The notes under the pieces were generated by a model that saw nothing but the letters and a program-made list of their open reading frames with translations, searched no databases and had not been told where the DNA came from. Both the position numbers and the translations under genes were made by a program. 64,000 bases of DNA from a bacterium (GTDB taxonomy: Bacteria; Auribacterota; Erginobacteria; Erginobacterales; DAOSXE01). The stretch covers positions 1,927 through 65,926 of the forward strand of contig DAOSXE010000015.1 of the NCBI GenBank assembly GCA_035380285.1, in the 5' to 3' direction. Each line of letters begins with the position of its first letter. The first letter of the stretch is position 1. Shown here in pieces: positions 26,346-47,290 of this stretch.

Positions 26346-27425
26346 GTGGGGGCGAAACGTCTCAAGGCCGATCCCGAAAGCATCGATTTCATTTTGGCGG
26401 CCAGTCTCCTGGCCCGTCAGCAGCGGGGCAACCACGCGGGATACTACGCGCTGGCGGCGCTGAGCCGGCTGTTGGAAAAAAACCTTCCCGGAGAGACGGG
26501 GCCGATCGAGGCCATGAACATCCGGCGGCGGCTGGACCGCCTGATCGGAGAAACCGAGTTCCCCGCCGAAATCGCCGCCAAGGTCTACGAGAACTGGAGA
26601 CCGATCCGGCCCTTCCTGGAGAAAAAAATCAGCATGGTACCCTCCCACCGCATGCGCCGGATCCGGCTTTTCGTCGAGTTGGTGGCATGGGTTTTCGAAA
26701 ACTACGCCCGGGTACCGGTCTCCGAAGTCGTCCGGGAGATGACCGTGGCCGACCTCGCCCGCCTGGAGCAGGGTTTCGGGTTCAAAGTCAGGGAGACCAA
26801 ACAAAAGAAACGGGAATTCCAGGGCTTCGCTCTCGCCGACTTCGACGACCTGCTCCGAATGCGCAAGCGCCTGGACGAGGCCGCGGGCGCCCTGGGCGGC
26901 TTGCTGGGCGACCGGGGAGGCCTCAGGCTGGGCCCCAGCCTGAGCGCGGTCGATTACACCAGTTCCTGGGTGGCCCTGACCTGGTGGGACAACCCCTTGG
27001 GCGAACCGGACGGCGAAGCCGGGTTTCGGGTCATGGCCACCACGGAAACGATCACCGCCGGCTTTTTCCTGGGCGCCGAGAGTACCCGCACCCGGGAGCG
27101 TTATTACCGGCGCCTGGGATCGGGCGAACTCGCCGGCTCCCTGGAGCGGTTCGCGGGAGCGGGGGGAACGTTCTTCGACTTTTTCTGGACCTGCAACCAG
27201 GACGAACGCCGTCCCATCGACGCGCCGGAGCAACTCCGGCCCAAGATAGAGGAGACACTGGCGGAACTCGCCTCCCTCCCCCCTCCCTACCCCGATACCC
27301 CGCTGCTGCCGGGCTGGGCCTGGACCCGTGAAGAAGCGGCGGGAATGCGGGAGCGCATCCTCCCCCTGGCCGCCGGGGCCTTCGGCCCCTGCGCCGCCTT
27401 AACGGCGGCCCTGGCCGGTCAGTAA
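26346..27425 (+). CDS. Hypothetical protein
   Basis: 359-aa ORF (GTG start) with protein-like composition. I recognise no motif. Confidence 0.45.
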   Translation: MGAKRLKADPESIDFILAASLLARQQRGNHAGYYALAALSRLLEKNLPGETGPIEAMNIRRRLDRLIGETEFPAEIAAKVYENWRPIRPFLEKKISMVPSHRMRRIRLFVELVAWVFENYARVPVSEVVREMTVADLARLEQGFGFKVRETKQKKREFQGFALADFDDLLRMRKRLDEAAGALGGLLGDRGGLRLGPSLSAVDYTSSWVALTWWDNPLGEPDGEAGFRVMATTETITAGFFLGAESTRTRERYYRRLGSGELAGSLERFAGAGGTFFDFFWTCNQDERRPIDAPEQLRPKIEETLAELASLPPPYPDTPLLPGWAWTREEAAGMRERILPLAAGAFGPCAALTAALAGQ

Positions 27426-28066
27426 CTGCCCCCGGAGAGTTTGAAGAGCCAGAAATCGGTGGGAACGGTCAGTTCTTTCTCCTCCTCGCCGGGAACGTCC
27501 TTGACCTCCAGCACTTCCCGCTTCGGAAACCAGAACTCCCTTCCCTCGGAAACGAGACAATAGGCGCGATCGGTTTCCCGGAGGATCCGGGCGCGCGCGG
27601 CGGTGAAGGCCTGGTCGTCCTCGCTCGGGTTTTCCAGGCGGCGGAGTTTGAAGTTGTAGTAGTTTTTCTGGATGACGAACCGGCAGCGGTCGTCCTCGAT
27701 CGGTTCGATCTCGGAAAAACAGACCCGGGGCAGAAACATCTCCCGGCCGTCGATTTCGACGCAGAGGGCGTCCTGTTCCTCCCTGACCAGGCGCCCGACG
27801 ACCTCGACCACATCTCCCAGGATCGAACCTTTGACCCCGGTGGCCTTCTCTTTCAGCCCCCTCATTTCCGCCCGCTTGGCCTCGAGGACCGATTCGAGGA
27901 TTTCCATCTCGTAGATGCCCTGCTCCGCCCGCAGACAGGAACGCACGGCTTCTTCGGGAATCCAGACCTTGCCTCCCCCCAGGTCGACCAGGCTGGCTTC
28001 CTCGGTGCGGATCAATACCTTGAGACGGAGACGGACGTAGCGTTCTTCCTCGGGCATCGAGATCAT
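27419..28066 (-). CDS. Hypothetical protein with three internal repeats, last gene of the T2SS-cargo gene run
   Basis: Start chosen at MISMPEEERY (28066); the N-terminal part of the 324-aa track ORF overlaps the giant gene. Three related segments: ASLVDLGGGKVWIPEEAV, ALCVEIDGREMFLPRVCF, AYCLVSEGREFWFPKREV. Confidence 0.55.
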   Translation of the reverse strand: MISMPEEERYVRLRLKVLIRTEEASLVDLGGGKVWIPEEAVRSCLRAEQGIYEMEILESVLEAKRAEMRGLKEKATGVKGSILGDVVEVVGRLVREEQDALCVEIDGREMFLPRVCFSEIEPIEDDRCRFVIQKNYYNFKLRRLENPSEDDQAFTAARARILRETDRAYCLVSEGREFWFPKREVLEVKDVPGEEEKELTVPTDFWLFKLSGGSY

Positions 28067-28131
28067 CCCCCCGACGGTTTCCGGGTTTACCCGAAGCCCA
28101 TGGTAGCAGAAGCCGGCGCCGGGACCAAGTC

Positions 28132-31100
28132 CTACCGAAGCTCGGAGTAAGGGCTTTCGGGAACCACCTGGTTCTCCAGATCGGAAACGGGGCGGAAGGT
28201 GGTGACCACCGCGCCCGGGGAATAGCGGTGAAGGCGGATCTCCTGGTCCCACGCCCCGGATTTCCCCCAGCGCAGATCGGGGTCGGGATCGGCCCAGGTT
28301 TCGGCGGGAACGTGCCCGGCATGATCCACTCCGGTCCACGTCACCTCCAGCTCCGTCCCTCCCACCGTCAGCACCATCCCGTCGTCGATCCACCGGTAGT
28401 CGCCCTGCAGGTGCCAGCGCACGATCCCCTGGCCGGGAAGGGTATCCTTGACTTCGATTCTCCTGTCTCCGGTCTTGTAGAGAACTACCTCGCGGCGCCA
28501 GCTCAGCGCTCCGACCGTGGAAACGGTGACGCTGCGGGACAGTTCGGAAGTGTCTTCCCAGGTCTCGGCCGCCGCCGGCGGGTAGGTGCCGCCGGTCTCG
28601 ACCAGGTTATGGAGTTTGAACGACGGATTGGAGTAGTTCATGGTCACCCCGGTGACGAACTCCTCGGGACCGACCCCCAGGCTGAGGATATCGTTGCCGA
28701 AGCCGTACCGGTCCTGGCCGCTGCCGGCGACCTGGGCGCCGAGGTCGAGCATGAGGAAAAGGGCGTCGGACCCGGACCCCGACCGGTGGATGACCTTGTC
28801 CGGGGTATCCACCAGTTGCGCCAGGGACTCGTCGTAGACTCCCGCCAACGATTGTCCCGGCATCATCGGCCGGGAGAGCACGCCCCCGGGGCAGTCCCCG
28901 TCGGCGGGCGCCTCGGGAACGAGATCTTCGTTCAGGAACCAGTAGAGGTAGACGGGGTTCATGTACACGGCGAACGGCCCCATCTGGGTGCCGGGGTAAC
29001 CGTAATCGTTGCGGCCGTAGGCCACCACTTCATGGCCCCGCGCGTACTCGAAGGCCTGCTGCAGAAGCCATTTGGCCCGCGCCGCGGCGGACCGGTGCTC
29101 GGGCACGTCATCGTCCAAAACCGCGGTGGCGGCGGCCAGGACTTCGAGGAAACGGTCGGTGAAGGCCTGCAGGTAATCCTGCCCGTAGGCGGGCATGAAC
29201 CCGTTGGGAGGGAAGGTCTCGATCAGGAGACAGACCTGGCGGTAGAAGTTGTCCCGCCACCTCTTGCCTTCCCCGTCCTCCACCGGGATCTCCATCCGGT
29301 TGGAGTAAAGGGCGACCCGCAGCATTTCCCGGATGAAGAGCCCCTGCCAATAGCGCGAGTTTTCGGGCAGGGTCCAGGTGTCGTCGTAACTGAGGAGCCG
29401 GTTGGCCCAGGCAATCATCTCCCGGCCCGGCTCTCCGCCGACGATATACCCCACCACCGCGTTGAGTCCGCAGACCGTCCCCTGCGCATAGTTCCCGGTA
29501 GAAGCGACTTCGCGGCGGTCCAGGGCCAGGCGGACGAATTTCTTCTCGATCTCGGCGCGCTCGGCCGACGAGAAAATCCCGGAGGCGGCCAGGGCCAGGT
29601 AGGCCTCGGCGACGTCGGAGATGCCCCGGGAGGTGGAGGTTCCGCCCCAGTCGAAGGAGGAATCCCGGACCAGGGCCAGCAGGTTCTCGCGAAAATAGTC
29701 GGCGCAGGGCCGGTACCCGGTCGCCAGATAGATGAAAGCGGTGTTGGGGAGATAGTCGTAAAGCGCGAACCGGGCGTCGGACGCCCCCAGGTTGCCGTCG
29801 AAGTTCTTGAAGTAGCACCCGGTGGCGAAATCGATCCAGTCGGCATAGTCCTCCACGGTCAGGCTGGAAATAAACGAGGCCCTCAGGGGGGAGGCCGGGG
29901 AATAATTGCCGTTGGTTTTTCCGGGGGTGCCGAAGTTGGTGGTGGTGCCCACGCTGTAGGTGGAACTGCTCAGCGCCCGGGCCCAGTTGGACTTGGTGGA
30001 ACCGCTCACGTCGGGGTCGAGACGCTCCATCGAAAATCCTTCCTGGGTGGTCACGAACCAGCCGGCGGAACTGCAGTCCACCGTATCGATGGTCTTACCG
30101 GAGTCGTCCTTCAAGACCAGCTTGTCCCCGCTGCCGCCGCACGTCAGCGTACTGGTGGCCTGGGCCCGGGCGCCGTTGGCCTGAACCGGAACGCTCAGGG
30201 CGCTGTTGGCGACGACCACGTAGAACGCCCCCACCGGGAGTTCGTAGCTCTTGAGCGAGATGCTCCAGTTTTCGGAATCGTTGTTCAGGGTCCAGTTTTC
30301 CACCTGCTGGGCGGCATCCCCGTAATTGGCGATCTCGATCCAACAGTAGGTGGGCTGATTCAGGGTGCCGGCGTAATTGATCTCGTTGATGACCAGCTGG
30401 CTGCTGCCGCCGCTGGAAGTGGGAGCCGGCACGGGAGTGGGAGTGGGGATGGGGGTGGGGGGAGGCGTGGGGGTGGTGAGGGTGACCCCGAACCAGGTCC
30501 GGTAAGCTTCCTTGTAGGTTTCCTGGAGGAGTCCGTAGGCCAGGGTCTGCCCTTCCGGCCGATACGGTTCCGGCGGCTCCAGGTCCTGAAGATCGTATTC
30601 CGCCTCCGCCGCGGCCGAGGCCCCGGCGGCCGCGCCGGATACCGGGGTGGGAACGACCGGGGGAAGCCAGCCCGCGCGGGCGAAGGGAGTGGGAGTGGGG
30701 GTGGCCCCGAACGTGTTCAAGTCCTCTATGTCGGGGGCGTACCAGACATGAACGCCGCCGTCTCCGGAAGCGGCGAAGACCATGTCGTCCTCCACCGCCA
30801 GCCCCTGCAGCGGGGCGCCCCCGGCTTCCAGCCTGCGCGCCAGGCGGAACCCGGGCAACTCCCAGACATAGAGGGAGCCGTCGTGACAGGAGGCGTAGAG
30901 AAACCCCCGGGCGGCGGCGGCGCCCGTAACCTGGTCCCGGCAGTCGTCGAGGATTTTCAGGGGAGCGAACTCCAGGGACCAGACATAGACATTCCCGTCC
31001 GAGGAGGAAAGGTATATCCGGTCGGCGTCGGTCGCCACCGAGTTCAGGTCGCTTTCGGCGCCGGCCAGCTCCGCCAGGGGCGCTCCGGTGGTCCGGTCCC

Positions 31101-33924
31101 AGACGTAGAGCGAGTACTCCGAGCCGCCGGTGGCGGCGTAAAGCCGTCCGGCGGCGGCGTCGACCGCCGTCACCCAGCCCCGGGACACCTGCCATTCTTC
31201 CTGCTGCTGAAACCCGTTCCGGTTCCAGGCGTAAACCCGGCGGCCGGTGGTGCCGGCGTAGACCATGCCGCCGTAAGCCGCCACTCCCTCCACCGGATCT
31301 CCGATGCTGGTCTCGCCGCGCAGGGAGCGCACCGGTTTCAGGGCAAGCCGGTCCCATACGTAGACGTTCCCGTCGTCGCTGCCGCCGTAGATGTAGCGGT
31401 CGTCGGCGGCGACCGAGATTATGGCCCCGGCGTTGGGGTAGGAGCAGCGGGAGCGGCGGCTGAAATCGTCGCGGTCCCAGATATAGACGTTGCCGTCCTC
31501 GTTCCCCCCTACCACCGAGCGGGAATCGGCCCAGACGGCCTCCATCCAACCGCTTCCGCCCTCGAGCACCGCCACTTCTTCGAACGGCGCGGGGGTGACG
31601 CTGGGCACGGCCAGCAACTGGGGCGCCGGGGTCGGAGAAAAGGGCGGAGTCCCCGCCGGCGCCGCCCCGCCGGAGGGGGAAACCGTGGGAACGGGGGTCG
31701 GGGAGCCGGGCGGCGTGGAGGCCGGGGTGACGGCGGCGGTCGGCGTCGGCGCGGGGGCTTCCGGGGACGGGGAAGGAACCGACTTCGCCGGCACCTGCAG
31801 CCAACGGTCGTAGTAGGTGTTCCCCTCGACGTCCACGTACCATTCGCGGTCGACGGCGTCGATAACGGGGGGGGGATACACGGCGGTGCGGCCGGCCGCC
31901 GCCCGGGTCGGGAGCTCGGTCAGGATTTCGAAGGAAACGTCCAGATAATCGCCTTCGGCTACGATAAAAGCGGGGTCGGTCCCCAGTTGGAGCTTGACCA
32001 TGACCGGCGCGGCGGGGACGGCGGTGCGGTCGGTGTAGGCGGTGAATTCCTGACAGTAGTCGTAGGTGCGCGCCAGCCACTCCCCGTTGTCGGCCCGGGC
32101 GACGATCCATTTCCAGCCCTTCTGCCCGGCGGCGCGGGTCTCCTTGAGATCGAGATCGGTCACCCGGCTCAGGGAGAGAGGAACGGCGCCGTACTCCGGG
32201 GTCGGAGTGGCGCTGGCGCTGGGGGTGGCGCTGGGGGTCGGGGTCTTGTACCCCTCCGGCGTCGGAGTCGGAGTCGGCGTGGGCGGGCTGGGGGTGGGGG
32301 TATGGTAACCGAAAGGAGTCGGCGTCGCGGTGGGCGCGGGAGTGGGAGTGGTCGGCGGAGTCGGAGTCGGTTCCGGGGTCGGGGTGGGGCGCGAAGAGAC
32401 CGGGGAACACAGCTCTTCGTCGCTGTAGCAGATGCCGTCCCTTCCCAGCCAGAAACGGGACGAGGCCGGAGCGCCCGGGGGCAGGTAGATCCTGGTCTGG
32501 GCGACTTGGGCCTCCCCTTCTTCGAGATAGAAGTACTGGAGGTCCAGGTAATCGCCGGCTTCGATCCGGGGATCCTCGGAATCCTTCTTGATGACCAGCG
32601 AAAGCACCGCGTCCGCGTCCAGCTTGGGCCCGGGACCGGCAAAGGAGTTGAGGCTGTCCTTGACCGAGGCCAGGGGCACATCCTCGCCCGGGGCCTCCAG
32701 GCGGTATTCCCACCCCCAACTCAGGGAGGCGCGGGGCCGGGCGATGGAGAGCGTGTTGATCTGAAACGCCGCCAGGGGGGTGGCGCAGTAGGCCGGAGTC
32801 GGCGACGGCGACGGGGGAACCGTCGGCGTCGGCGCCGCCTGACAGAGGGAGACGTCCCGGTAGAGGACCCCCGTGGAATCGGGGTACCCGACCAGAGGAG
32901 CGGTCGGGTCCAGGTCCAGGGCAGGCAGGGCGATGCTGACGGCGGAACTTCCGGAACCGGTGGCGTAATCGATCTCCAGGGTGTCCCCGGGCTCGATCAC
33001 GATGTTCCCGGAGTACCCGGGATTTTTTATGATGGTCAGGCGCAGGGGGCGGTCGTCGGTGAAAACGGCGGCGACCCGCATCTGGTTGAGGTTGTCGGTG
33101 ACGTAGGCCAGGGTGGTCCTGCCGTCGGCGGTCTGGAGCAGATAGCCCCACCCGTCGGTTGAGGTGCTCCGGGGGTGGGAGAGGCTGAGGGCGTTGATCC
33201 ACCGGGCCCGGAGGGGTTCGCGGCCGGAGCAGTAATCGGGGGTGGGGGTCGGCGTGCCCGGAATCCGGGTGGGCGGGGGCGTCGGCGTCGTCAGGTAGGG
33301 CGTCGGGGAGGTCGGCCAGATGCCGAAGGCTTCGAAATAGAACTGCCGGTAGGCTTCGTCGAGGAGGGACCGGGCCAGGGTCCCGTTCTCTTCCCGGTAA
33401 GGATTCCGCGGGTAGACGGATACCCGGCGCTCGGCGCCTTCGGGCGTGGTGATGACGACGACGATCTCCTCGCTTTCGTCCCGGTGCAATCCGCCCCGGG
33501 CGGCCGCGGCCGCGGCCGCGGTCGGACCCGGGCTGGGGGTGGGGATCCGGCTGGGCGTGGGCACCGGCGTGGGCGGCGTGGCCAGGACCACGCCGAACGC
33601 CTGGAAATAAAACTCCTTGAAGCCCCGGCCGAGCAGGGAATAGTCCAGGCTCCGGTTTTCGGGCCGGTAGTCCTCCCGGGGCTCCACCATCGTCTCGCGG
33701 GTCTCCCCCGAGGGCTCGACCACGACCACGTCCACCTTCTCCGCGCCCCCGCCGTGGAGCCCCAGGCCGGCCTCGCGGGAGGCGCCCGGAACTCCCGGCA
33801 CCCGGAAGACCCGGCCGGGAGAGGGCGAGGGAGACGGCGTCGGGGACTCGGCGCCCTCGCTCCGGAGAGGGGACAGGGCCGCGGCCAGGAGCGCCCAGGC
33901 GAAAAAGAGCGGCCGCGCCTTCAC
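28132..33924 (-). CDS. Giant secreted multidomain protein (1930 aa): novel repeats, WD40/PQQ-like beta-propeller, lamin-tail domain, tentative heparinase II/III-like C-terminus
   Basis: Signal peptide MKARPLFFAWALLAAALSPLRSEG. PT-rich linkers. Seven blades of the xDGNVYVWD type. LTD pattern LVINEINYAG...CWIEIANYGD...WTL. The start overlaps the gspM stop by 4 nt. Confidence 0.8.
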   Translation of the reverse strand: MKARPLFFAWALLAAALSPLRSEGAESPTPSPSPSPGRVFRVPGVPGASREAGLGLHGGGAEKVDVVVVEPSGETRETMVEPREDYRPENRSLDYSLLGRGFKEFYFQAFGVVLATPPTPVPTPSRIPTPSPGPTAAAAAAARGGLHRDESEEIVVVITTPEGAERRVSVYPRNPYREENGTLARSLLDEAYRQFYFEAFGIWPTSPTPYLTTPTPPPTRIPGTPTPTPDYCSGREPLRARWINALSLSHPRSTSTDGWGYLLQTADGRTTLAYVTDNLNQMRVAAVFTDDRPLRLTIIKNPGYSGNIVIEPGDTLEIDYATGSGSSAVSIALPALDLDPTAPLVGYPDSTGVLYRDVSLCQAAPTPTVPPSPSPTPAYCATPLAAFQINTLSIARPRASLSWGWEYRLEAPGEDVPLASVKDSLNSFAGPGPKLDADAVLSLVIKKDSEDPRIEAGDYLDLQYFYLEEGEAQVAQTRIYLPPGAPASSRFWLGRDGICYSDEELCSPVSSRPTPTPEPTPTPPTTPTPAPTATPTPFGYHTPTPSPPTPTPTPTPEGYKTPTPSATPSASATPTPEYGAVPLSLSRVTDLDLKETRAAGQKGWKWIVARADNGEWLARTYDYCQEFTAYTDRTAVPAAPVMVKLQLGTDPAFIVAEGDYLDVSFEILTELPTRAAAGRTAVYPPPVIDAVDREWYVDVEGNTYYDRWLQVPAKSVPSPSPEAPAPTPTAAVTPASTPPGSPTPVPTVSPSGGAAPAGTPPFSPTPAPQLLAVPSVTPAPFEEVAVLEGGSGWMEAVWADSRSVVGGNEDGNVYIWDRDDFSRRSRCSYPNAGAIISVAADDRYIYGGSDDGNVYVWDRLALKPVRSLRGETSIGDPVEGVAAYGGMVYAGTTGRRVYAWNRNGFQQQEEWQVSRGWVTAVDAAAGRLYAATGGSEYSLYVWDRTTGAPLAELAGAESDLNSVATDADRIYLSSSDGNVYVWSLEFAPLKILDDCRDQVTGAAAARGFLYASCHDGSLYVWELPGFRLARRLEAGGAPLQGLAVEDDMVFAASGDGGVHVWYAPDIEDLNTFGATPTPTPFARAGWLPPVVPTPVSGAAAGASAAAEAEYDLQDLEPPEPYRPEGQTLAYGLLQETYKEAYRTWFGVTLTTPTPPPTPIPTPTPVPAPTSSGGSSQLVINEINYAGTLNQPTYCWIEIANYGDAAQQVENWTLNNDSENWSISLKSYELPVGAFYVVVANSALSVPVQANGARAQATSTLTCGGSGDKLVLKDDSGKTIDTVDCSSAGWFVTTQEGFSMERLDPDVSGSTKSNWARALSSSTYSVGTTTNFGTPGKTNGNYSPASPLRASFISSLTVEDYADWIDFATGCYFKNFDGNLGASDARFALYDYLPNTAFIYLATGYRPCADYFRENLLALVRDSSFDWGGTSTSRGISDVAEAYLALAASGIFSSAERAEIEKKFVRLALDRREVASTGNYAQGTVCGLNAVVGYIVGGEPGREMIAWANRLLSYDDTWTLPENSRYWQGLFIREMLRVALYSNRMEIPVEDGEGKRWRDNFYRQVCLLIETFPPNGFMPAYGQDYLQAFTDRFLEVLAAATAVLDDDVPEHRSAAARAKWLLQQAFEYARGHEVVAYGRNDYGYPGTQMGPFAVYMNPVYLYWFLNEDLVPEAPADGDCPGGVLSRPMMPGQSLAGVYDESLAQLVDTPDKVIHRSGSGSDALFLMLDLGAQVAGSGQDRYGFGNDILSLGVGPEEFVTGVTMNYSNPSFKLHNLVETGGTYPPAAAETWEDTSELSRSVTVSTVGALSWRREVVLYKTGDRRIEVKDTLPGQGIVRWHLQGDYRWIDDGMVLTVGGTELEVTWTGVDHAGHVPAETWADPDPDLRWGKSGAWDQEIRLHRYSPGAVVTTFRPVSDLENQVVPESPYSELR

Positions 33925-39500: not shown

Positions 39501-40721
39501 CTAGATCTGAATATCGGACATCTGCAGAATCGGCAGCAGGATGGAGATGACGATAAATCCCACCACCACCCCCATGAACAGGATCATGATCGGCTCCAGC
39601 ACCGTGGTCAGAACGCTGACCGAAGCCTCGACCTCGTCTTCGTAGGCCTGGGCCATCTTGAAGAGCATGTCCTCCAGAGCCGCGCTCGACTCCCCTACCG
39701 AGAGCATGTGCACCACGATCGGGGGGAACACCCGGCTCTGCCGGAAAGGCTCGGCGATGGATTTCCCGGCCCTGACCGCGTCCTTGGCCTGTTCGATGGC
39801 CTCTCCCACCGCCTGGTTGTTGACGATGTTCTTGACGATGTCGAAGGAGTGCAGGAGCGGCGTCCCGCTGGAGAGGAGGATGCCCAGCGTGCGGCTGAAA
39901 CGGACGATGGTGAGCTTGCGGAAAATGGGGCCGAAGATGGGGATCTTGAGCTTCCAGCAGTCCACCAGGTACCGGGCCCGCTTGCCCCGGGACCAGACCC
40001 GGTAGATCAGATATACCCCCCCCAGGACCAGGAGAATCAACCACCAGTATTCCTGGACGAGCGTGCTGGCGTTGATCAGGATCCGGGTGGGCAACGGCAG
40101 CGCCTTCTCGGTGTCCTCGAAGAGGACGATGATGGTGGGGACGACCTTGATCAGGAGAAACGCCACCACGAGCACGCCCACCATGGATACCACCACCGGG
40201 TAGAGCATGGCCCCCCGGACGGTGCTGCGCAGCTTGAGGTTCTTCTCCGCCAGGTCCGCCAGACGGCCCAGCACCATCTCCAGCGCCCCCGCGGTTTCGC
40301 CGGCCTTGACCATGTTGACGTAGAGGGGGGAAAAAATCCGGGGATGCTCGGCCAGGGCGTCGGCGAAGGTGGAGCCGGCGTTGACCTGGTCCCGGATCTG
40401 GATCACCACCCGCTTGAGGGGGTTGCCTTCGAACTGTTCGATCAGGGCGCTCAGGGAGGGGACCAAAGGCATCCCCGCCCCAACCAGGGTGGAGAGCTGG
40501 CGGGTGAAGACGGAGACGTCGGAGGCCTTGATCCTCCCCAGGATGCGGGAGACGTTGACCTCGCTCTGCAGCCCGATCTTCTCCTCGCTGCGGACGATCT
40601 CGGTCGGGTAGAGGGCCTGGCGCCGGAGTTTGGTGCGGGCGTCGGCCGGGGAATCGGCGTCGATGATCCCCGTCACCTGGCTCCCTTTCCCGTTCAATGC
40701 CTTGTATTCGAAAACCGCCAT
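39501..40721 (-). CDS. gspF: Type II secretion inner-membrane platform protein F
   Basis: 406 aa with the duplicated GspF/PilC layout: two cytoplasmic domains and three TM segments. Confidence 0.85.
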   Translation of the reverse strand: MAVFEYKALNGKGSQVTGIIDADSPADARTKLRRQALYPTEIVRSEEKIGLQSEVNVSRILGRIKASDVSVFTRQLSTLVGAGMPLVPSLSALIEQFEGNPLKRVVIQIRDQVNAGSTFADALAEHPRIFSPLYVNMVKAGETAGALEMVLGRLADLAEKNLKLRSTVRGAMLYPVVVSMVGVLVVAFLLIKVVPTIIVLFEDTEKALPLPTRILINASTLVQEYWWLILLVLGGVYLIYRVWSRGKRARYLVDCWKLKIPIFGPIFRKLTIVRFSRTLGILLSSGTPLLHSFDIVKNIVNNQAVGEAIEQAKDAVRAGKSIAEPFRQSRVFPPIVVHMLSVGESSAALEDMLFKMAQAYEDEVEASVSVLTTVLEPIMILFMGVVVGFIVISILLPILQMSDIQI

Positions 40722-40758: not shown

Positions 40759-42486
40759 TCAGACCTCGATGATATCTTCCTGCGTGACCCGGATCACTTC
40801 CTCGACGGTCGTCTCTCCGCTCACGACCTTGCGGGCCCCGTCCATTCTCAGGGTGCGCATCCCCCGCTTGAGGGCGGCGCGCTTGATCGTGCCCACGTCC
40901 ACCCGCTCCACCACCATCCGCCTGATCTCGTCGTCGACCAGCAGCAGTTCGAATATGGCCGAACGCCCCATGTAGCCGGAATGAAAACACTTCTCGCATC
41001 CCTTTCCCCGTACCAGGGGGCGCCCCTCGAGCTGGTCGAGGGCGAGGCCGATGCTTTTGAGTTCCTCCTCGCTGGGCGCGTAGGACTCACCGCAGTGGGG
41101 GCAGATGGTGCGGACCAGGCGCTGGGCCATGATCCCCACCACCGAGGAAGAGACCAGGTAGGGCTCGACTCCCATGTCGATCATCCTGGTGATGGCCCCG
41201 GCGGCGTCGTTGGTGTGGAGGGTGCTGAAGACCAGGTGGCCGGTCAGCGAAGCCTGGATGGCGATTTCGGCGGTCTCGGTGTCGCGCATCTCGCCGACCA
41301 GGACGATATCCGGGTCCTGGCGGAGAATCGAGCGCAACCCGTTGGCGAAGGTGAGGTTGATCTTGGGAGCGACCTGGATCTGCCCGATCCCGGGCAGCTG
41401 GTACTCCACCGGGTCCTCGATGGTGATGATGTTCTTGTCCAGGGAGTTCATCTCGTGCAGAGCGGCGTAGAGCGTGGTGGTCTTTCCCGACCCCGTGGGC
41501 CCGGTCACCAGGATGATGCCGTGGGTGAGTTTCAACAGCCGGCGCAGGAGCTTAAGGCCGTCGTCGCCCAGCCCCAGATCGTGGAGCCCGAACAACTGGC
41601 TGGACTTGTCCAGGAGCCTCAACACGATCCGTTCCCCGAACGAAACCGGGATGACCGAGACCCGGATATCGATCTCCCGGTCGGTGATCCGGATCTTGAT
41701 CCTGCCGTCCTGGGGGAGGCGCTTCTCGGCGATGTTGAGGTTGGCCATGATCTTGACGCGGGAGATGATCGAGGACTGGTACTGTTTGGGCGGGCTGAGG
41801 ACCTCGTAGAGAACGCCGTCGATCCGGTAGCGGACCCGCAGGTCCTTTTCGAAGGGTTCGATGTGGATATCGCTGGCCCGGGCCTTGACCGCCTCGAAGA
41901 TGATCAGGTTGATCAATTTGATCACCGGGGCCTTGGCGGCGATGTCCAGAAGGTCCTCGGCGGCGTCGGTGATGGTCACCATCTCCGGAGCGTCTTCGTC
42001 TTCCTCCAGCCCCTCCAACATGGCCTCGGCGGCGCCGTCGGCGTGTCCGTAGCAGCGGTTGGCGATCCGGACGATCTCCTCGGGCACCGAGACGATCACG
42101 TCCAGGTTGCGGTCGAGAAGAAGGCGGAGGTCGTCCAGAGGCTGAACGTCGAGGGGGTCGGCCATCGCCACCTTGACCGTTCCGTCGGCGGACGCACCCA
42201 GGGGGATAAGCCGGTTGGCCAGAAGAAAATTGAGCGGGACCCGGGAGACCAGCGCCTTGTCCACGCGCTCCTCGGTCAGGTGCTCCTCGAAGGGGAACCC
42301 CAGGCATTCGGCCAGGGCCCGGCGGACCTGGCTGTCCCGAACCAACCCGGCTTCGATCAGTTCCTCGGTCAGCGACCGGCTTTCGCCCGGAGACCATTTA
42401 TCCAGAACCTTGTCCAGAGCCGGCCGGGCGAGGGCGCCGGCGCCGACCAGCTTCTCGGCTACTTCCTTTTCCAGAACCTCGTTCAT
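40759..42486 (-). CDS. gspE: Type II secretion ATPase E
   Basis: Walker A GPTGSGKTTT, Asp box, Walker B ILVGEMRD, His box, and the tetracysteine CPHC...CEKC motif. Confidence 0.9.
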   Translation of the reverse strand: MNEVLEKEVAEKLVGAGALARPALDKVLDKWSPGESRSLTEELIEAGLVRDSQVRRALAECLGFPFEEHLTEERVDKALVSRVPLNFLLANRLIPLGASADGTVKVAMADPLDVQPLDDLRLLLDRNLDVIVSVPEEIVRIANRCYGHADGAAEAMLEGLEEDEDAPEMVTITDAAEDLLDIAAKAPVIKLINLIIFEAVKARASDIHIEPFEKDLRVRYRIDGVLYEVLSPPKQYQSSIISRVKIMANLNIAEKRLPQDGRIKIRITDREIDIRVSVIPVSFGERIVLRLLDKSSQLFGLHDLGLGDDGLKLLRRLLKLTHGIILVTGPTGSGKTTTLYAALHEMNSLDKNIITIEDPVEYQLPGIGQIQVAPKINLTFANGLRSILRQDPDIVLVGEMRDTETAEIAIQASLTGHLVFSTLHTNDAAGAITRMIDMGVEPYLVSSSVVGIMAQRLVRTICPHCGESYAPSEEELKSIGLALDQLEGRPLVRGKGCEKCFHSGYMGRSAIFELLLVDDEIRRMVVERVDVGTIKRAALKRGMRTLRMDGARKVVSGETTVEEVIRVTQEDIIEV

Positions 42487-42504: not shown

Positions 42505-44937
42505 CTACTGGCGCAAGCGCGCGGTCCCCCGTTTCGTCTCTTCCTCGTCGGGGCGGCCGAAGGTTACCCGGGGCAGGTTGTTGAGGAACCCCAGGGCGCT
42601 CCCGGAATCGGTTTCGGCCGGAACCGCCTCCGGCGGTTTTTCTTCGGAAGCGGCCGTCTCCGGTGCCGGTTCCGCGGGGGCGGAAACTTCCTCCGGCGCC
42701 GGTTTCGCCTCGGAAACGGCGGCTTCCGGGGCCTCGCCCGCGGGGGGCGCGGCCTCCGATTTCTCCTCGTACGCGGCCGCGGGAGCGGGCTCTTCCTCCT
42801 CCCCGGCGGCCGCCCGTTCTTCCCGGAGGACCCGGTCGAAGAAGGCGGAACCGGAATTCTCTTCCCGGTAGATGCTCTTGAGTTCGTCGAGGCGCTCCTG
42901 CTGCTTGCGCCGCGCCTCTTCTTCCCGCAGCCGGGTCTCGTTTTCGTCCTCGGAGAGGCGCAGGTCGATATAGGGCATTTCGTGCCGTTTCATCGCGGTC
43001 AGATCGGCGATCTGCTGGGTGGTTTTGACCACCCGGGGCGTGATGAAGACCAGGAGGTTGCGCTTGGCGGTGGTGTTGGTCTCCCAGCGGAAGAGATATC
43101 CCAGCAGGGGGATGTCGCCGAGGAAGGGGATCTTGTCCTCGGTCTGGGTCTTTTCGTCCTGGATCAGGCCGGAGATCACGATGGTGTGGTTGTCCTTGAC
43201 GATGACGTTGGTTTCGGTGATGCGCTTGTAGGTTTCCGGGGTCAGGTAGTACCCCGACACCGATTGACCGATGATCGACGAAATCTCCTGGCTGATCTCG
43301 AGCCGGACCATGCGGTCGCGGCTGATGTGGGGGGTGATCTTGAGTTTGATCCCCACGTCCTTATACTCGATGTCCTGATAATCGTTGTTGTTGTCGTTGC
43401 TGTTGATCTCGATCTTGCTCACGTAGGGGATGTTCTTGACCACTTCGATCGACGCTTCCTCGTTGTCCATGGTCAGGACCTGGGGAGTGGAGAGGATATC
43501 GACGTCCTGGTTGGTCTGAAGGGCATGGATGAGCACGGCCAGGTCGGGGATGCTGGTGCCGGTGCCCGCCATCTTCTGAACGAACCCCATGGTCCCCCCG
43601 GAAAGGCCGCTGGTGACGATGGCGGTGGGATCGGAGGCCTGAGCGGCGAGCATGGAGGAGAGGGCGTTCCCGCTGGAAGACCAGCTCGAACCTCCGTAGC
43701 CCTGGGCGTTGCTGCGGCCGGCGCCCATGGAAGAATAACCCTGCCCGGTGGGAAGCCCCTGGGTCTGCCCCTCGTTGCCGATCGACTGGATCTCGACGCC
43801 GAGTTCGAAGGACTTGTCGTAAGCGACTTCGGCGATCAGGACCTCGACCAGGACCTGGTCGCGCATGATGTCCAGCTGCTTGATGATGTTCTGCAGGGAG
43901 GCGTAATCCTCGGGGGTGGCGTCGATGATCAGGGAGTTGGTGGCCTTGTCTTCGCTGATGAGGGGGACGACCTCCCCTCCCGTGGTTTTGCGCTTGCCGA
44001 TGACGTTGTTGAGGACCTTGGATATCTCTTCGGCGTCGGAGTTCCGGAGAAAATAAACGTGGATGTTGGTGCGTTCGGTTTCGACGTCGAGCTTCTTGAT
44101 CAGTTCGATGACCTGGCGGGTGTCTTCGGAGTTGGCGAGGATGATCAGGGAGTTGGTCCGTTCGTCGGCGATGAGCTTGAGAGTCGATTCCGTGGGCTGC
44201 AGCTGCTGGCGGTTGCGGCGGCGGGGGGTGGGGGGCGTCCCCGGAACCGTTCCGGCTTCCTCGATGACCTGGGTCAGTTCCGCCGCCAGGGTCTCGGCGG
44301 CGGCGTAGCGCAGGGGCAACACCGTGATTCGGGTCTCGTAGCCGGGAACGTCGAGTTCCTTGATGATCTTGACCAGCCGGTGGATGTTGGAGGAAACGTC
44401 GGTCACGATCAGGGTGTTGGTCATGGGATAGGGGATGACGCTGGCCTCCTTGGAGAAGAGCGGCCCCAGGGCGGCCCGGACCTTCTCGACCTCGGCGTAC
44501 TCCAGGGGAATGAGCTGCGTGATCAGGGTGTCTTCGGGCACGATCTGTTCCAGGTTGTCGCCGACCGCGGTCTGGATGTTCCTCTGGCTGCCCAGGCGCT
44601 TGGTCGAGACCTTGATCACTTTCCCCGAGGGGACGGCGGTGAACCCGCGCACTTCCAGGATCGATTCGAAGACCTTGTAGGCCTCGTCCAGGGGGATCAT
44701 GGTGGGGGAGATGACGGTCACCGTGCCCCGGACGTCGTTGTCGACGATGAAGTTCTTCCCGGTCAGATCGCTGATGTACTTGATGACCAGCCGGATGTCG
44801 ACGTTGTCGAAATCCATGCTGACCATGCCTTCGTCGTCCGCCGGCTGCTGCGCCCGGACCGGCCTCCCGGGAAAAGCCAGTCCCAGGAGGCAAAGAAGGA
44901 GGACGGGTAGTGTGCGGATTCCGTGGTTTTTTCTCAT
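42505..44937 (-). CDS. gspD: Type II secretion secretin D
   Basis: Signal peptide, N0-N3-like domains, secretin core (...VSGLIQDEKTQTEDKIPFLGDIPLLGYLFR...LLVFITPRVV), and an acidic/Ala/Pro-rich C-terminal tail. Confidence 0.9.
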   Translation of the reverse strand: MRKNHGIRTLPVLLLCLLGLAFPGRPVRAQQPADDEGMVSMDFDNVDIRLVIKYISDLTGKNFIVDNDVRGTVTVISPTMIPLDEAYKVFESILEVRGFTAVPSGKVIKVSTKRLGSQRNIQTAVGDNLEQIVPEDTLITQLIPLEYAEVEKVRAALGPLFSKEASVIPYPMTNTLIVTDVSSNIHRLVKIIKELDVPGYETRITVLPLRYAAAETLAAELTQVIEEAGTVPGTPPTPRRRNRQQLQPTESTLKLIADERTNSLIILANSEDTRQVIELIKKLDVETERTNIHVYFLRNSDAEEISKVLNNVIGKRKTTGGEVVPLISEDKATNSLIIDATPEDYASLQNIIKQLDIMRDQVLVEVLIAEVAYDKSFELGVEIQSIGNEGQTQGLPTGQGYSSMGAGRSNAQGYGGSSWSSSGNALSSMLAAQASDPTAIVTSGLSGGTMGFVQKMAGTGTSIPDLAVLIHALQTNQDVDILSTPQVLTMDNEEASIEVVKNIPYVSKIEINSNDNNNDYQDIEYKDVGIKLKITPHISRDRMVRLEISQEISSIIGQSVSGYYLTPETYKRITETNVIVKDNHTIVISGLIQDEKTQTEDKIPFLGDIPLLGYLFRWETNTTAKRNLLVFITPRVVKTTQQIADLTAMKRHEMPYIDLRLSEDENETRLREEEARRKQQERLDELKSIYREENSGSAFFDRVLREERAAAGEEEEPAPAAAYEEKSEAAPPAGEAPEAAVSEAKPAPEEVSAPAEPAPETAASEEKPPEAVPAETDSGSALGFLNNLPRVTFGRPDEEETKRGTARLRQ

Positions 44938-45016: not shown

Positions 45017-45970
45017 TCATTGCGTCGGATCCAGTTCCTGGTCCTGGACCAGATATTCCAATTGAACGTGCCGGTCCCCCCGGAGGACGTCGACGACCAC
45101 CGTCTGCGCGTCCTGGATCTTGAGGAGGATGTCCATGGCTTCCTGTTTGCCGGTGATGGTCAACCCGTTGACTTCCTGGATCACGTCCCCCTCCCTCACC
45201 CCCAGCTTGTAGGCCAGGTGCTCCCGGGGCAGGACGACGATCTCGTAACCGGAGGCCGGCCCCCGGGTCCGCCCCTGGGGCGGATACCAGGGACGGCACC
45301 CCACCGTCCGCAGGGAGCCGATGACGTCGTCGGGGACCAGCCGGAAGTTCTCCCCCCCGCGGGCCAGCTTCTCCAGCATCTTCTCGTTGACCAGCTTCCA
45401 CATCCCCCGGCGGCTGACCAGCCAGCGGTTCGGCCCCAGTTTCTTGAAGACCCGGGAAAAATGGAGCCGGTTTTCCGGGACCGGGATGTGGCCGATGAAC
45501 GACGAGATCACGTGGCGGCGGCCGTTGTTCTCCAGGGTGACGTCGATGCGGTCGATTTCGACCACCCGCCAGCCCCGGATGACGTCGTCGAGGCGGTAGA
45601 TCTTCTGGGTCTTGCTGGCCAGGTCCTCGATGATCGCCCAGCTGCGGCGGGGATCGTCGAAGACCGAGGTTCCCTTGAGTTCGAGGCGGGGCGGCGGCGC
45701 CGTCGGGGGCGGCGGGGTCGGGGGCGCTTTTTCCTCGGGCGGCTGGAACTTGGTCTGCCAGAGGTTGCGCGCGAGGATGGCGCCGTAGTAGCCGGGGCCG
45801 GGAGCCGAAGCTTCCCCCCCGGAGCCGCCGTCGTGCTCGTAGGTCACCGACGCGCCCACCTCGCCGGCGCGGGGCGGAACGACGATGGTCCAGATCAGAT
45901 ACCCCACGCCGGCGGCCAGGACGATCCCCAGGAAGTAATTGACGAAGCTGATGTAGCGGCGCGGTATCAC
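45017..45970 (-). CDS. gspC: Type II secretion protein C-like (TM + PDZ domain)
   Basis: N-terminal TM (FVNYFLGIVLAAGVGYLIW), Pro-rich linker, C-terminal PDZ-like LGVREGDVIQEVNGLTI. The start overlaps the anti-sigma stop by 4 nt. Confidence 0.6.
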   Translation of the reverse strand: MIPRRYISFVNYFLGIVLAAGVGYLIWTIVVPPRAGEVGASVTYEHDGGSGGEASAPGPGYYGAILARNLWQTKFQPPEEKAPPTPPPPTAPPPRLELKGTSVFDDPRRSWAIIEDLASKTQKIYRLDDVIRGWRVVEIDRIDVTLENNGRRHVISSFIGHIPVPENRLHFSRVFKKLGPNRWLVSRRGMWKLVNEKMLEKLARGGENFRLVPDDVIGSLRTVGCRPWYPPQGRTRGPASGYEIVVLPREHLAYKLGVREGDVIQEVNGLTITGKQEAMDILLKIQDAQTVVVDVLRGDRHVQLEYLVQDQELDPTQ

Positions 45971-46713
45971 TCCCCCCCCTCCGTCCCGGCGGCGGCCGAG
46001 GCCGCGCGCTCGCGGCGGACCCGCCGCGCCAGTTCGTCGACCTGGAACGCGGGGGGGAGCAGGACCGCTTCGCCCTCCCGCTTGCGGCCGGCATTGAGCA
46101 GGAACCGGAAATCGCCGTGGAGGTCCCTGACCAGCTCGCGGTAGCGGGACCCGGGGGAGAGCGTCCGGGTGAGGGAGAGGGCCCGCCCCTGAAGGTCGCG
46201 GGAAACGATGTCCTCCAGCAGTTCGTCCCAGGTCCCGTAGCCGCCGGCCTCCAACCGGTCCAGGACCTCCTCCACCTGCTCCAGGTAGTCGACCAGGACC
46301 GCGTCCGGGTCGCGGACGGGCGACGGGGAAAACGTCAGGGCCTCGGTGAAGGAGGGAGCCGGCCGGCGGACGAGGAAAAACCAGCCCGTCCCGGCCAGCA
46401 CGACGACGGCGGCGGCCGCCGCCGCCACCCGCGCCAGGGGAAGAATCGGAAAGACCGGGGGCTTTTTAAGTTCCTGTTCCAGCCGCTCCACCACGGCGTG
46501 GTCGGCGGCGGGGGAGAACACGGGGGGAGCGGCGGGGAGAGACTCCCAGGCCCGGGAGAGTTCCTCGCGGTAAGCCCGGCAGCCGGGGCAGTCCTCGAGG
46601 TGCTCGCGGACCCGCTCGGAAAAGCAGTCGGGCCCCGCGATCCCCAGGATCCGGTCCCGCAGGAGTTCCCGCACGGATCGACAATTCTCAGGTTGTTTCT
46701 TCATTCCCTTCAT
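45967..46713 (-). CDS. Anti-sigma factor (zf-HC2 type, single TM)
   Basis: N-terminal C..H...C..C zinc-finger pattern (CRSVRELL...HLEDCPGCRAY) and a central TM (AAAAAAVVVLAGTGWFFLV). It overlaps the sigma gene. Confidence 0.7.
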   Translation of the reverse strand: MKGMKKQPENCRSVRELLRDRILGIAGPDCFSERVREHLEDCPGCRAYREELSRAWESLPAAPPVFSPAADHAVVERLEQELKKPPVFPILPLARVAAAAAAVVVLAGTGWFFLVRRPAPSFTEALTFSPSPVRDPDAVLVDYLEQVEEVLDRLEAGGYGTWDELLEDIVSRDLQGRALSLTRTLSPGSRYRELVRDLHGDFRFLLNAGRKREGEAVLLPPAFQVDELARRVRRERAASAAAGTEGGE

Positions 46714-47290
46714 CGAGGTAGCGGCTCAGGCGCAGGCGGAGGTGCTCCAGGGCGTAATGCAGCCGCGACCTCACCGTCCCCGGCGGGACTCCGGTAACTT
46801 CGGCGATTTCACGGTAGGTCAGCCCGTTGATGCGGTTCAAAACAACCACCTCGCGGTGCGCCGCGCTCAATTCCCGCAATTCCCGGTCCAGCATTTCCCG
46901 GAACTCGGCGGCGGCGGCCTCGTCGCCGGGGCCGGGCCCCGGATATTCCAGCAGGTCCCCGTGGGTCGTTCCTTCCTCCTCTTCGGACGTCAAAGGCGCG
47001 TCCAGGGACCAGGTCCGTTTGCGTTTCATGCTCCTCAATTCGTCGCGGCAACGGTTGGCGGCGATGGCATAGAGCCAGGTCTTGAATTTTTTCCCCGCCC
47101 GGAACTTCGGCGCTCCGCGAAACACCCGTATGAACGTATCCTGATAAGCCTCCTGGGCCCGGTGGTAGTCCCGGATCATTCCCACCATGAACGCCATCAG
47201 GGGATCCCGGTAGCGTCCCATCAGCTCTTCCAATGCGCCCGTGTCTCCGCCGGCGCAGCGTTCGATCAGTTTCTCGTCGGTTTCAATCAT
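46688..47290 (-). CDS. ECF-type RNA polymerase sigma-70 family factor
   Basis: Region 2 (YQDTFIRVFRG...FKTWLYAIAANRCRDELR) and region 4 (VVVLNRINGLTYREIAEVTGVPPGTVRSRL). Confidence 0.85.
   Translation of the reverse strand: MIETDEKLIERCAGGDTGALEELMGRYRDPLMAFMVGMIRDYHRAQEAYQDTFIRVFRGAPKFRAGKKFKTWLYAIAANRCRDELRSMKRKRTWSLDAPLTSEEEEGTTHGDLLEYPGPGPGDEAAAAEFREMLDRELRELSAAHREVVVLNRINGLTYREIAEVTGVPPGTVRSRLHYALEHLRLRLSRYLDEGNEETT

Follow-up and report, generated by a model that had tools for sequence, protein, structure and literature searches.

The window, a 64-kb stretch of genomic DNA, carries on its minus strand a run of 15 genes (positions 27419-47290) in which genes for an ECF sigma factor and an anti-sigma factor are followed by gspC-D-E-F-G-H-I-J-K-L-M of a type II secretion system (T2SS), a gene for a giant protein of 1930 amino acids and a gene for a small protein of 215 amino acids. 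An ORF check placed all 15 genes at the coordinates given below and, together with family searches, confirmed the order of the original prediction; GC3 was of the coding type (0.70-0.91) across all 15 ORFs. The host is an uncultivated digester bacterium of the candidate phylum Auribacterota. Strand switches bound the run, with a plus-strand Maf gene at 47437 on one side and a convergent plus-strand gene (26346-27425) on the other.

The genes are densely packed, with six overlaps among them. From the sigma factor gene onwards, the junctions measure -26 nt (sigma/anti-sigma), -4 nt (anti-sigma/gspC, GTGA), 79 nt (gspC/gspD), 18 nt (gspD/gspE), 37 nt (gspE/gspF), 92 nt (gspF/gspG), 21 nt (gspG/gspH), -17 nt (gspH/gspI), -8 nt (gspI/gspJ), -1 nt (gspJ/gspK), 18 nt (gspK/gspL), 3 nt (gspL/gspM), -4 nt (gspM/giant, GTGA) and 65 nt (giant/small), the 92-nt gap being the largest, as predicted. 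A search for internal promoters and terminators found the coding strand of the run free of sigma-70-like matches and its intergenic gaps free of terminator-like sites.

Protein families were assigned by Pfam and NCBIfam profile searches with cut-offs. Matches were strong for GspD, GspE, GspF and GspG and barely above the Pfam cut-offs for GspC, GspH, GspJ and GspM. In the first group, gspD (42505-44937) encodes a secretin of 810 amino acids with N0, three Secretin_N and Secretin domains, gspE (40759-42486) the ATPase (T2SSE, 476 bits; MshEN), gspF (39501-40721) the platform protein (T2SSF, 205 bits) and gspG (38989-39408) the major pseudopilin (T2SSG, 100.8 bits; N_methyl). The second group comprises gspC (45017-45970; T2SSC, 28.3 bits; GspC_delta, 89.9 bits), whose GTG start codon overlaps the anti-sigma stop codon by 4 nt and whose product has a PDZ-like C-terminus, the minor pseudopilin genes gspH (38491-38967; GspH, 26.4 bits; N_methyl) and gspJ (37409-38095, TTG start; T2SSJ, 31.6 bits), and gspM (33921-34481; T2SSM, 28.5 bits). 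The two other minor pseudopilins had only sub-threshold NCBIfam matches: the gspI-like gene (38088-38507, TTG start; N_methyl) reached 36 bits with XpsI, and gspK (36132-37409), encoding 425 amino acids with an acidic insertion and alignable with gspK of relatives, reached 84 bits with T2SS_GspK (cut-off 130). The gspL equivalent (34485-36113; PilM_2, 100 bits) encodes a PilM-type actin-like domain followed by a C-terminal membrane/periplasmic part. As had been noted before, no prepilin peptidase gene (gspO) was present among the window ORFs scanned.

The PilM-type character of the GspL equivalent, whose best NCBIfam matches were Amuc_1101 PilM-like (far below its cut-off) and TIGR01175 pilM, and the weak GspI and GspK matches would also fit genes for a type IV pilus-like fibre or an organelle of adhesion, with the giant protein as an adhesin or associated surface protein. 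We consider this highly improbable, since GspC with its PDZ-like part, GspD (N0 and three Secretin_N domains), T2SSG, GspH, T2SSJ and T2SSM are matches to T2SS-specific models, and the run contains no genes for a PilT-type retraction ATPase, PilN, PilO or PilP.

The sigma factor gene (46688-47290, minus strand) encodes 200 amino acids with Sigma70_r2 and Sigma70_r4_2 domains (Pfam) and matched TIGR02937 (NCBIfam) with 97 bits (cut-off 43). The anti-sigma factor gene (45967-46713, minus strand) encodes a single-pass, zinc-type protein of 248 amino acids, which matched NF052375 (NCBIfam) with 32.6 bits; its motif HLEDCPGC (HxxxCxxC) and its transmembrane segment are kept at the related loci L105 and L107 and in Acidobacteriota. 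Of the predicted zf-HC2 anti-sigma factor overlapping the sigma gene, the motif, the transmembrane segment and the 26-nt overlap were recovered, but the zf-HC2 match (Pfam, 19.6 bits) lies under the cut-off of 22.2, and the overlap depends on the choice of start codon, because the JGI call of 235 amino acids uses an alternative GTG and begins 13 nt past the sigma stop codon.

Directly upstream of the sigma gene, where it had been predicted, lies the ECF-type promoter element TGAACC-N16-CGTA (47298-47323, minus strand), ending 7 nt before the ATG. For the exact pattern, 0.1 occurrences per window are expected; the loose pattern GAAC-N16-18-CGT is not enriched in the window (32 seen, 31.5 expected). 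The arrangement TGAAC[CA]-N16-CGTA-N7-ATG occurs with the same offset in three lineages, namely the window, L105 (8163-8188) and L107 (793-818), whose spacers and flanks cannot be aligned. Because the 7-nt offset is identical in otherwise unalignable DNA, this footprint makes it very likely that the element is a genuine, auto-regulated ECF promoter, which probably gives a leaderless mRNA. A sigma-70-like sequence, TTAACA-17-TAAGAT (47375-47403, minus strand), is a candidate basal promoter solely by its consensus match. A second motif, TGAACC-N17-CGTA (36547-36573, minus strand), lies inside gspK over the codons for EPFSGFRSY; it is common to the window and L107, is missing from L105 and L089, and is probably not a promoter.

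We then compared the run with the corresponding loci of divergent relatives, all of them Candidatus Auribacterota where named. The order from sigma and anti-sigma through gspC to gspL is kept in L107 and L105/L106, with sigma orthologues 62% (L107) and 54% (L105) identical to that of the window. Since the best NCBIfam matches of the sigma factor were generic RpoE-, SigW- and SigM-type models, all under their equivalog cut-offs, the pair might be a general regulator of envelope stress, as RpoE and SigW are, with many targets elsewhere in the genome. It would then share no more than a transcription unit or neighbourhood with the T2SS genes, which would be transcribed mostly from other, unrecognised promoters. 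The resemblance of the -35/-10 pair to the common ECF consensus would be compatible with this, as would the gap of 442 nt between anti-sigma gene and gspC in L105, which is filled with repeats and is devoid of the ECF motif; the search for promoter copies covered 64 kb of the genome. We nevertheless regard a general regulator as quite unlikely. The adjacency to gspC is maintained at GspC identities of 62% (L107) and 52% (L105/L106) although the genes upstream of sigma differ between these loci and the window, the 4-nt overlap of anti-sigma gene and gspC recurs in L107, and Acidobacteriota have an unrelated ECF/anti-sigma pair in this position. Neither the window nor the relatives' loci contained a further intergenic copy of the TGAACC-N16-CGTA type. 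The anti-sigma gene also adjoins gspC in L095 and L097, and this conserved neighbourhood supports the view that the sigma/anti-sigma pair and the T2SS belong together.

The giant gene (28132-33924, minus strand) encodes a multi-domain exoprotein with a signal peptide and Pro/Thr linkers on its N-terminal side, three modules "A", three modules "B", a beta-propeller (approximately residues 790-1070), a Lamin-tail domain (LTD, 1174-1283) and a C-terminal domain with a predicted polysaccharide-lyase fold (approximately 1350-1930); the third module A sits between propeller and LTD. The lyase-fold model is of moderate confidence (pLDDT 61.5), and single-sequence and profile searches with this domain gave no sequence match to any PL, Pfam or PDB family, including those with which its fold compares, PL12 heparinase III, the PL15/PL17 alginate lyases, PL35, PL40 and PL8. 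The fold of these families consists of an (alpha/alpha) toroid and a beta-sandwich. The family is tiny: among 1.84 billion representatives, about 20 clusters contain the domain in full. The giants of relatives share propeller, LTD and lyase-fold domain as a common core. A remote member, P0039, has Laminin_G_3 and a weak Dockerin_1 match under the Pfam cut-off; both are features of extracellular carbohydrate-binding proteins. The small gene (27419-28066, minus strand) encodes a conserved protein without signal peptide, built of three tandem repeats, each a small beta-barrel and a helix.

In L089 and L092, gspK-L-M, giant and small follow one another as in the window, and L087 keeps giant and small on a contig that begins too near the giant gene to show gspM; the small proteins of relatives are 50-58% identical. 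The convergent gene overlaps the small gene end to end and encodes 359 amino acids with no Pfam or NCBIfam match. In L087, L089, L091 and L092 a homologue of it stands downstream of the small gene; this gene and the 215-aa cytoplasmic protein are part of the conserved block. The predicted 4-nt overlap of gspM and the giant gene is present in the window but is not conserved, since in L089 and L092 a gap of 230-240 nt precedes the giant gene and one of 340-355 nt the small gene. The ECF motif is missing from both gaps, and the cargo may therefore have its own, different promoter there.

A homologue of the lyase-fold domain that stands alone, P0007, lies in a glycosylation cluster with glycosyltransferase, PMT and epimerase genes (L088), a location that could point to action on glycans of the cell itself instead of an external substrate; in relatives, Glyco_transf_9, GT2 and UDP-glucose pyrophosphorylase genes come after the block; and periplasmic alginate lyases and epimerases belong to the fold family. 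The giant might thus stay in the periplasm or on the cell surface as an enzyme that trims or remodels the cell's own envelope or exopolysaccharide, much as AlgL does in alginate export, and its T2SS linkage would then reflect a shared envelope function. This appears unlikely, given that it also stands right behind gspM in L089 and L092, that the glycosyltransferase genes are absent at the matching position of the window, and that the large multi-domain architecture, linked by Pro/Thr stretches and including LTD and propeller, is of the kind usual for extracellular enzymes. We favour export by the adjoining T2SS, with the giant as its putative cargo and, as far as the fold model suggests, an enzyme.

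Our findings suggest, with a probability of roughly 0.6 and on the basis of sequence comparisons, that the run forms a single secretion module controlled by its sigma factor. What was observed directly, namely gene order, overlaps, domain content, synteny and promoter conservation, leads to the following model. At rest, the membrane-spanning HxxxCxxC anti-sigma factor would keep the sigma factor inactive, until an extracytoplasmic signal, presumably from the envelope, releases it. Sigma-RNA polymerase would then initiate at TGAACC-N16-CGTA, essentially at the sigma ATG, to give a leaderless mRNA. Transcription through sigma and anti-sigma would provide positive feedback and would continue into the overlapping or closely spaced gspC-M, giant and small genes. 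The giant would cross the inner membrane by Sec via its signal peptide, fold in the periplasm and be expelled by the pseudopilus machine through the GspD secretin. Outside the cell, the lyase-fold domain may act on an acidic polysaccharide, the beta-propeller, Lamin-tail domain and repeated modules probably being binding or spacer parts. The original idea of a secretion machine and dedicated substrate under their own sigma factor thus gains from synteny, promoter footprint and giant position, but the coupling of gspM and giant by overlap does not extend to relatives.

Since relatives keep both layout and promoter, the regulatory design appears to be real but not unprecedented. As with Bacillus subtilis SigW/RsiW and Escherichia coli RpoE/RseA, an ECF sigma factor of two domains is encoded in the window ahead of a membrane anti-sigma factor, and the promoter directly upstream is very likely auto-regulatory; the consensus in those systems is (T)GAAC-N16-CGT(A). 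The NCBIfam scores, far under the equivalog cut-offs, indicate that the sigma factor is not a SigW or RpoE orthologue; moreover, the downstream genes encode a secretion machine and an exoprotein instead of stress defence, and the promoter abuts the start codon. ECF sigma factors devoted to a secretion apparatus and its substrates are also known in HrpL (ECF32) for T3SS, SigP for T9SS and EcfK for T6SS (PMC7826278; PMC13147305), whose inputs are HrpR/S, the PorXY two-component system and the PknS kinase, none with a co-transcribed zinc-type anti-sigma factor.

In Acidobacteriota, a same-strand ECF sigma/zinc-type anti-sigma pair likewise heads the T2SS cluster in 15 of 18 informative loci, an arrangement of which we found no description in the literature searched. 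The order there is sigma, HxxxCxxC anti-sigma, an exported protein of about 200 amino acids and gspEFGHIJK...D, with gspE first and the secretin last, unlike the window, and without giant or small homologues. Their sigma factors share only about 30% identity with that of the window, and the conserved ECF-like motif upstream of sigma is AGACTTTC-N13-14-CATC, not TGAAC[CA]-N16-CGTA; in three genomes it sits instead between genes of the T2SS cluster.

The closest precedent is VreI/VreR of Pseudomonas aeruginosa with the Hxc T2SS and LapA, where an ECF sigma/anti-sigma pair also lies directly upstream of a complete dedicated T2SS and its substrate gene, and where vreI overexpression induces the adjoining hxc genes and PA0688 (PMC2729926). 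The run is not a usual stand-alone gsp operon, as predicted, and relatives keep the pair with the T2SS, but the design has this precedent. VreI/VreR is of the FecI/FecR cell-surface signalling type with the TonB-transducer-like VreA, whereas the window pairs an RpoE/SigW-like sigma factor with a short, single-pass HxxxCxxC anti-sigma factor and has no receptor gene. The genes here further differ in forming a single co-directional, overlapping run, from a PVC candidate phylum, whose putative cargo is a multi-domain protein of 1930 amino acids and not a small phosphatase as in Hxc.

Every credible gene between positions 27419 and 47290 of the window lies on the minus strand, and the run of 15 genes described there in the original prediction is confirmed. 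GC3 is of the coding type across the genes of the run (0.70-0.91), and the overlapping plus-strand ORFs show an antisense pattern of codon-position GC. Gene families were assigned with Pfam and NCBIfam. The first gene (46688-47290, -) encodes an ECF sigma factor, which consists of regions 2 and 4 only (Sigma70_r2, 58 bits; Sigma70_r4_2, 58 bits; TIGR02937, 97 bits, cut-off 42.9); an identical protein is encoded on anaerobic-digester metagenome contigs and in two NCBI MAGs. Directly after it lies the gene for a 248-aa cognate-type anti-sigma factor (45967-46713, -) with the motif HLEDCPGC (HxxxCxxC) and one membrane segment, both of which are kept in L105 and L107, two loci of relatives; its zf-HC2 score of 19.6 bits lies below the Pfam cut-off of 22.2.

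The following minus-strand genes encode a type II secretion system (T2SS). GspC (45017-45970) matches T2SSC (28.3 bits, cut-off 27) and GspC_delta (89.9 bits) and has a PDZ-like end, and the secretin GspD (42505-44937) is a strong match, with type_II_gspD_N0 at 89.8 bits, Secretin_N in three stretches and Secretin at 178 bits. The ATPase GspE (40759-42486; T2SSE, 476 bits) and the platform protein GspF (39501-40721; T2SSF, 205 bits) are equally clear, and both major and minor pseudopilins are represented by GspG (38989-39408, a strong match), GspH (38491-38967) and GspJ (37409-38095), all scoring above the Pfam cut-offs. The GspI-like protein (38088-38507) and GspK (36132-37409) are assigned from N_methyl, sub-threshold NCBIfam scores (XpsI, 36 bits; GspK, 84 bits) and position only. 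The assembly proteins are completed by GspM (33921-34481; T2SSM, 28.5 bits, cut-off 27.8) and by a variant in which a PilM_2-type protein (34485-36113) takes the place of GspL. No prepilin peptidase (GspO/PilD) was found among the scanned ORFs of the window, as had been noted before. The run ends with the gene for a probable multi-domain exoprotein of 1930 aa (28132-33924, -), here called the giant gene, and the gene for a small protein of 215 aa (27419-28066, -).

From the sigma gene to the small gene, the junction spacings are -26, -4, 79, 18, 37, 92, 21, -17, -8, -1, 18, 3, -4 and 65 nt, which agrees with the overlaps and the largest gap of 92 nt that had been reported. The overlap between the sigma and anti-sigma genes hinges on the choice of start codon, the JGI form of the anti-sigma factor being 235 aa long and starting 13 nt past the sigma stop. 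The run is flanked by a divergent Maf gene on one side and by a convergent gene for a 359-aa protein on the other.

Relatives of the locus were sought with GspC as query, which presupposes no sigma factor. This search yielded L107 (62% GspC identity) and L105/L106 (52%), in which the genes have the same order on one strand, from sigma and anti-sigma through gspC-D-E-F-G-H-I-J-K-L. On two further contigs, with GspD 77-80% identical, the anti-sigma gene lies directly before gspC and the contig then ends. Identity to the window proteins in L107 and L105 is 62% and 54% for the sigma orthologues and 42% and 36% for the anti-sigma orthologues, which keep the zinc motif and a helical extracytoplasmic domain. 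The 4-nt overlap between the anti-sigma gene and gspC is kept in L107, and in L105 these genes are separated by a 442-nt gap occupied by a repeated element. The upstream neighbour of the sigma gene differs (in the window it is the divergent Maf gene, in L105 a TPR gene on the same strand as sigma), yet the order is retained, in line with the earlier proposal of the pair and the T2SS as one unit; that the sigma/anti-sigma pair belongs with the T2SS is well supported by this comparative evidence.

Repeats are found in both relatives: L105 has copies of an element of ~110 nt in its intergenic regions (7685-8198 and 9555-10003), two of them in the anti-sigma-gspC gap, and in L107 the DNA before the sigma gene (1-200) contains ~46-nt tandem repeats. 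A gene for a matrixin-type protein (Peptidase_M10) lies near the sigma end in the window (48954-50414, +) and in L105 (1-738), and its product is possibly another exoprotein of the system.

The DNA preceding the sigma gene reads TGAACC GGTTGCCGTCTTCGGG CGTA GTAAGAG ATG in the window, TGAACA TAACTCATCGGACCTG CGTA TAAGATA ATG in L105 and TGAACC GGAGTTCCTTATCCGG CGTA TAGAGAG ATG in L107. Both elements of TGAAC[CA]-N16-CGTA are thus kept in three lineages with identical spacings of 16 nt and 7 nt, and neither the spacer nor the DNA upstream of the motif can be aligned. The exact pattern TGAACC-N16-CGTA is expected by chance 0.1 times per window and the loose pattern GAAC-N16-18-CGT is not enriched in the window, and therefore it is conservation, and not the match itself, that carries the argument for a promoter. 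Both elements are similar to the usual ECF consensus, SigW (TGAAAC-N16-CGTA) being one example. The candidate promoter of the original prediction is thereby footprinted at the same offset from the sigma ATG in three lineages, and it is very likely a real auto-regulatory ECF promoter. ECF promoters usually start transcription a few bases past the -10 element, and all three sigma orthologues begin at an aligned methionine; transcription would therefore start on the ATG or no more than a few bases away, and the sigma mRNA is probably leaderless.

Upstream of the ECF motif there is also a sigma-70-like match (47403-47375). Within the run, scans with consensus patterns gave neither a sigma-70-like promoter on the coding strand nor a terminator-like site in the gaps between genes. 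Two candidate internal signals were considered, the first as a promoter and the second as a terminator, and both were rejected. The first, a TGAACC-N17-CGTA copy within gspK (36573-36547, -), falls in the conserved codons of E-P-F-x-G-[FL]-R-x-Y; it recurs at the same codons in L107 (11565-11591) and is absent from L105 and from L089, a further relative. This copy uses GAA and CGT in the window and in L107, codons unusual for a GC-rich genome, and is treated as the combined outcome of coincidence and shared ancestry. The second, a GC-rich hairpin in the 92-nt gspF-gspG gap (39409-39500, -; -43.6 kcal/mol, z = -2), lies just before the gene of the major pseudopilin, has no U tract and is not kept in L107.

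Loci for the downstream end of the run were collected with the small protein as query, which gave 12 homologues. Wherever the available DNA suffices (L089 and L092), the order gspK-L-M, giant gene, small gene is kept, with giant proteins of 1954 aa in L089 and 2847 aa in L092; the giant and small genes are also kept in L087, where the giant gene is split in two. The gaps in L089 and L092 measure 230-240 nt between gspM and the giant gene and 340-355 nt between the giant and small genes. The 4-nt overlap of gspM with the giant gene, on which translational coupling had been proposed, is therefore present in the window but not conserved, and because the relatives have long gaps the coupling is not conserved either. 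The ECF motif is absent from the long anti-sigma-gspC gap of L105 and from the gspM-giant and giant-small gaps of L089 and L092, and consensus scans found no sigma-70-like promoter or terminator before the giant gene of the latter two loci. In L089, both gaps (3547-3790 and 9642-10003) contain runs of GTCCAT-like units ~9-10 nt apart, which could be a regulator-binding array or a genome-wide repeat. The conserved order makes it well supported that the giant gene belongs with the T2SS, and we infer co-transcription, an inducing signal and T2SS-dependent export of the giant protein.

At its N-terminus the giant protein has a segment resembling a signal peptide; its other parts are Pro/Thr-rich linkers, two unassigned modules in three copies each, a WD40-like beta-propeller, a Lamin-tail domain (LTD) and a C-terminal domain of 580-640 aa; the propeller, the LTD and the C-terminal domain form the core common to its orthologues. 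By its domain content it looks like an exoenzyme. In the AlphaFold prediction for the C-terminal domain (8-sequence alignment, pLDDT 61.5, pTM 0.68), a helical toroid comes first and a beta-sandwich after it, an arrangement that would correspond to the (alpha/alpha) toroid and beta-sandwich fold of the polysaccharide lyase families PL12, PL15, PL17, PL35 and PL40. By sequence it belongs to none of these, and searches with single sequences or profiles, remote members included, gave no Pfam, NCBIfam or PDB family. An exhaustive profile search found the full domain in only ~20 clusters. N199, Y204, H549 and other residues are invariant and are candidates for the catalytic Tyr/His/Asn constellation of such lyases. 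One remote family member bears Laminin_G_3 and a weak dockerin match. A stand-alone homologue of 662 aa, 33% identical to the lyase-fold domain, is encoded in L088 (Logan SRR8556237_20, 6972-8960) among genes for glycosyltransferases, epimerases, a PMT/PA14 protein and a radical SAM enzyme; given this glycosylation cluster, the domain may have a role on the cell's own glycans.

Where labelled, homologues of the C-terminal domain and of the small protein come only from Candidatus Auribacterota, Aureabacteria or the 'PVC group', and Candidatus Auribacterota is itself a candidate phylum of the PVC group. The small protein, which has no signal peptide, shows 50-60% identity across the clade. Its predicted structure, of good confidence (pLDDT 82.6), consists of three tandem repeats of a small beta-barrel and a helix, for which structure searches returned generic SH3/Sm/S1-like matches only. 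The convergent 359-aa gene (26346-27425, +) and the small gene overlap at their ends by 7 nt; the 359-aa protein has no family match, and homologues of its gene lie convergently at this position in L087, L089, L091 and L092. Elsewhere in the window, a low-GC island (11282-21059, -; 51-53% against ~65%) beside tRNA-Ala(GGC) (21739-21812) was probably acquired horizontally; it encodes an O-methyltransferase, a HATPase_c_3 protein, a C5 DNA methylase, a metalloenzyme-superfamily protein, a 604-aa RuBisCO-large-chain-like protein and a GNAT+HAD fusion.

A cross-phylum survey covered 80 GspE-centred loci from many phyla among the matches listed for the GspE query; none of these matches was from the window's own lineage, and the best was 57% identical. 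Among them, 15 of the 18 Acidobacteriota loci with enough upstream DNA have an ECF sigma gene on the same strand 1.2-1.5 kb upstream of gspE, in the order sigma, HxxxCxxC anti-sigma with a membrane segment, a ~200-aa protein with an N-terminal hydrophobic segment, and gspE (for example in L037). The Myxococcota, Nitrospirota and Spirochaetota loci among these matches showed no such sigma factor. The Acidobacteriota sigma factors are ~30% identical to that of the window. A GAAC...CGT motif upstream of their genes was looked for and is absent, with AGACTTTC-N13-14-CATC there instead; in 12 of the 15 loci, TTAGACTTTC-N13-14-CATC is conserved before the sigma gene. L037, L040 and L042 have no CATC motif before sigma and carry it instead in the T2SS cluster, ~1 kb upstream of gspD. 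A closer look at one of the three, L037 (8213-9925 and 18246-18282), places the motif in the intergenic gap ahead of the gene that precedes gspD; in this locus a transposase-like gene is found upstream of sigma.

Our findings make the original interpretation well supported by comparative genomics in its core, a conserved module with a footprinted promoter. A broader reading, to which we give roughly one chance in four, is that pairs of an ECF sigma factor and a zinc-type anti-sigma factor are a recurrent and undescribed form of dedicated T2SS control outside the Proteobacteria. It is based on the occurrence of such pairs in Auribacterota and, independently, in most of the sampled Acidobacteriota clusters. 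The overlapping stop and start codons would fix the proportion of anti-sigma factor to GspC, the anti-sigma factor would act as a sensor, either of the machine's state or of substrate being present, and secretion would feed back on the expression of its own apparatus through a leaderless, auto-amplifying transcript. The locus and its Acidobacteriota parallel may offer a compact regulon of one sigma factor, an anti-sigma factor, a conserved promoter, a machine and a candidate substrate, from lineages that lack a cultured representative or have poor genetics. The giant protein represents a rare, unannotated family with a predicted polysaccharide-lyase fold, which may bear on polymer breakdown in anaerobic digesters.

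To our knowledge, the regulation of T2SS genes is known almost only for Proteobacteria. Full-text searches of the literature turned up no T2SS operon headed by a zinc-type ECF pair, an absence that is not proof of novelty, and the one genomic paper dealing with Candidatus Auribacterota yielded nothing on secretion or sigma factors. Dedicated ECF sigma factors are known for the T3SS, T9SS and T6SS (PMC7826278, PMC13147305). The closest documented case comes from P. aeruginosa, where vreA-vreI-vreR lies directly upstream of the hxc T2SS genes and PA0688, and overexpression of vreI induces the hxc genes and PA0688 (PMC2729926). VreAIR (PUMA3) comprises FecI/FecR-type proteins and a receptor-like partner, whereas in the window the anti-sigma factor and the neighbouring genes showed neither a FecR nor a receptor domain. 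Since these components are missing, the window locus is, by this comparison, a system that would work like PUMA3-Hxc and stand outside that family. Current views are not overturned, as Pseudomonas already provides a documented case of a T2SS under the control of an ECF sigma factor encoded next to it; what the locus adds to that case is a conserved and probably leaderless promoter, a rare family with a predicted lyase fold, and an independent analogue in Acidobacteriota.
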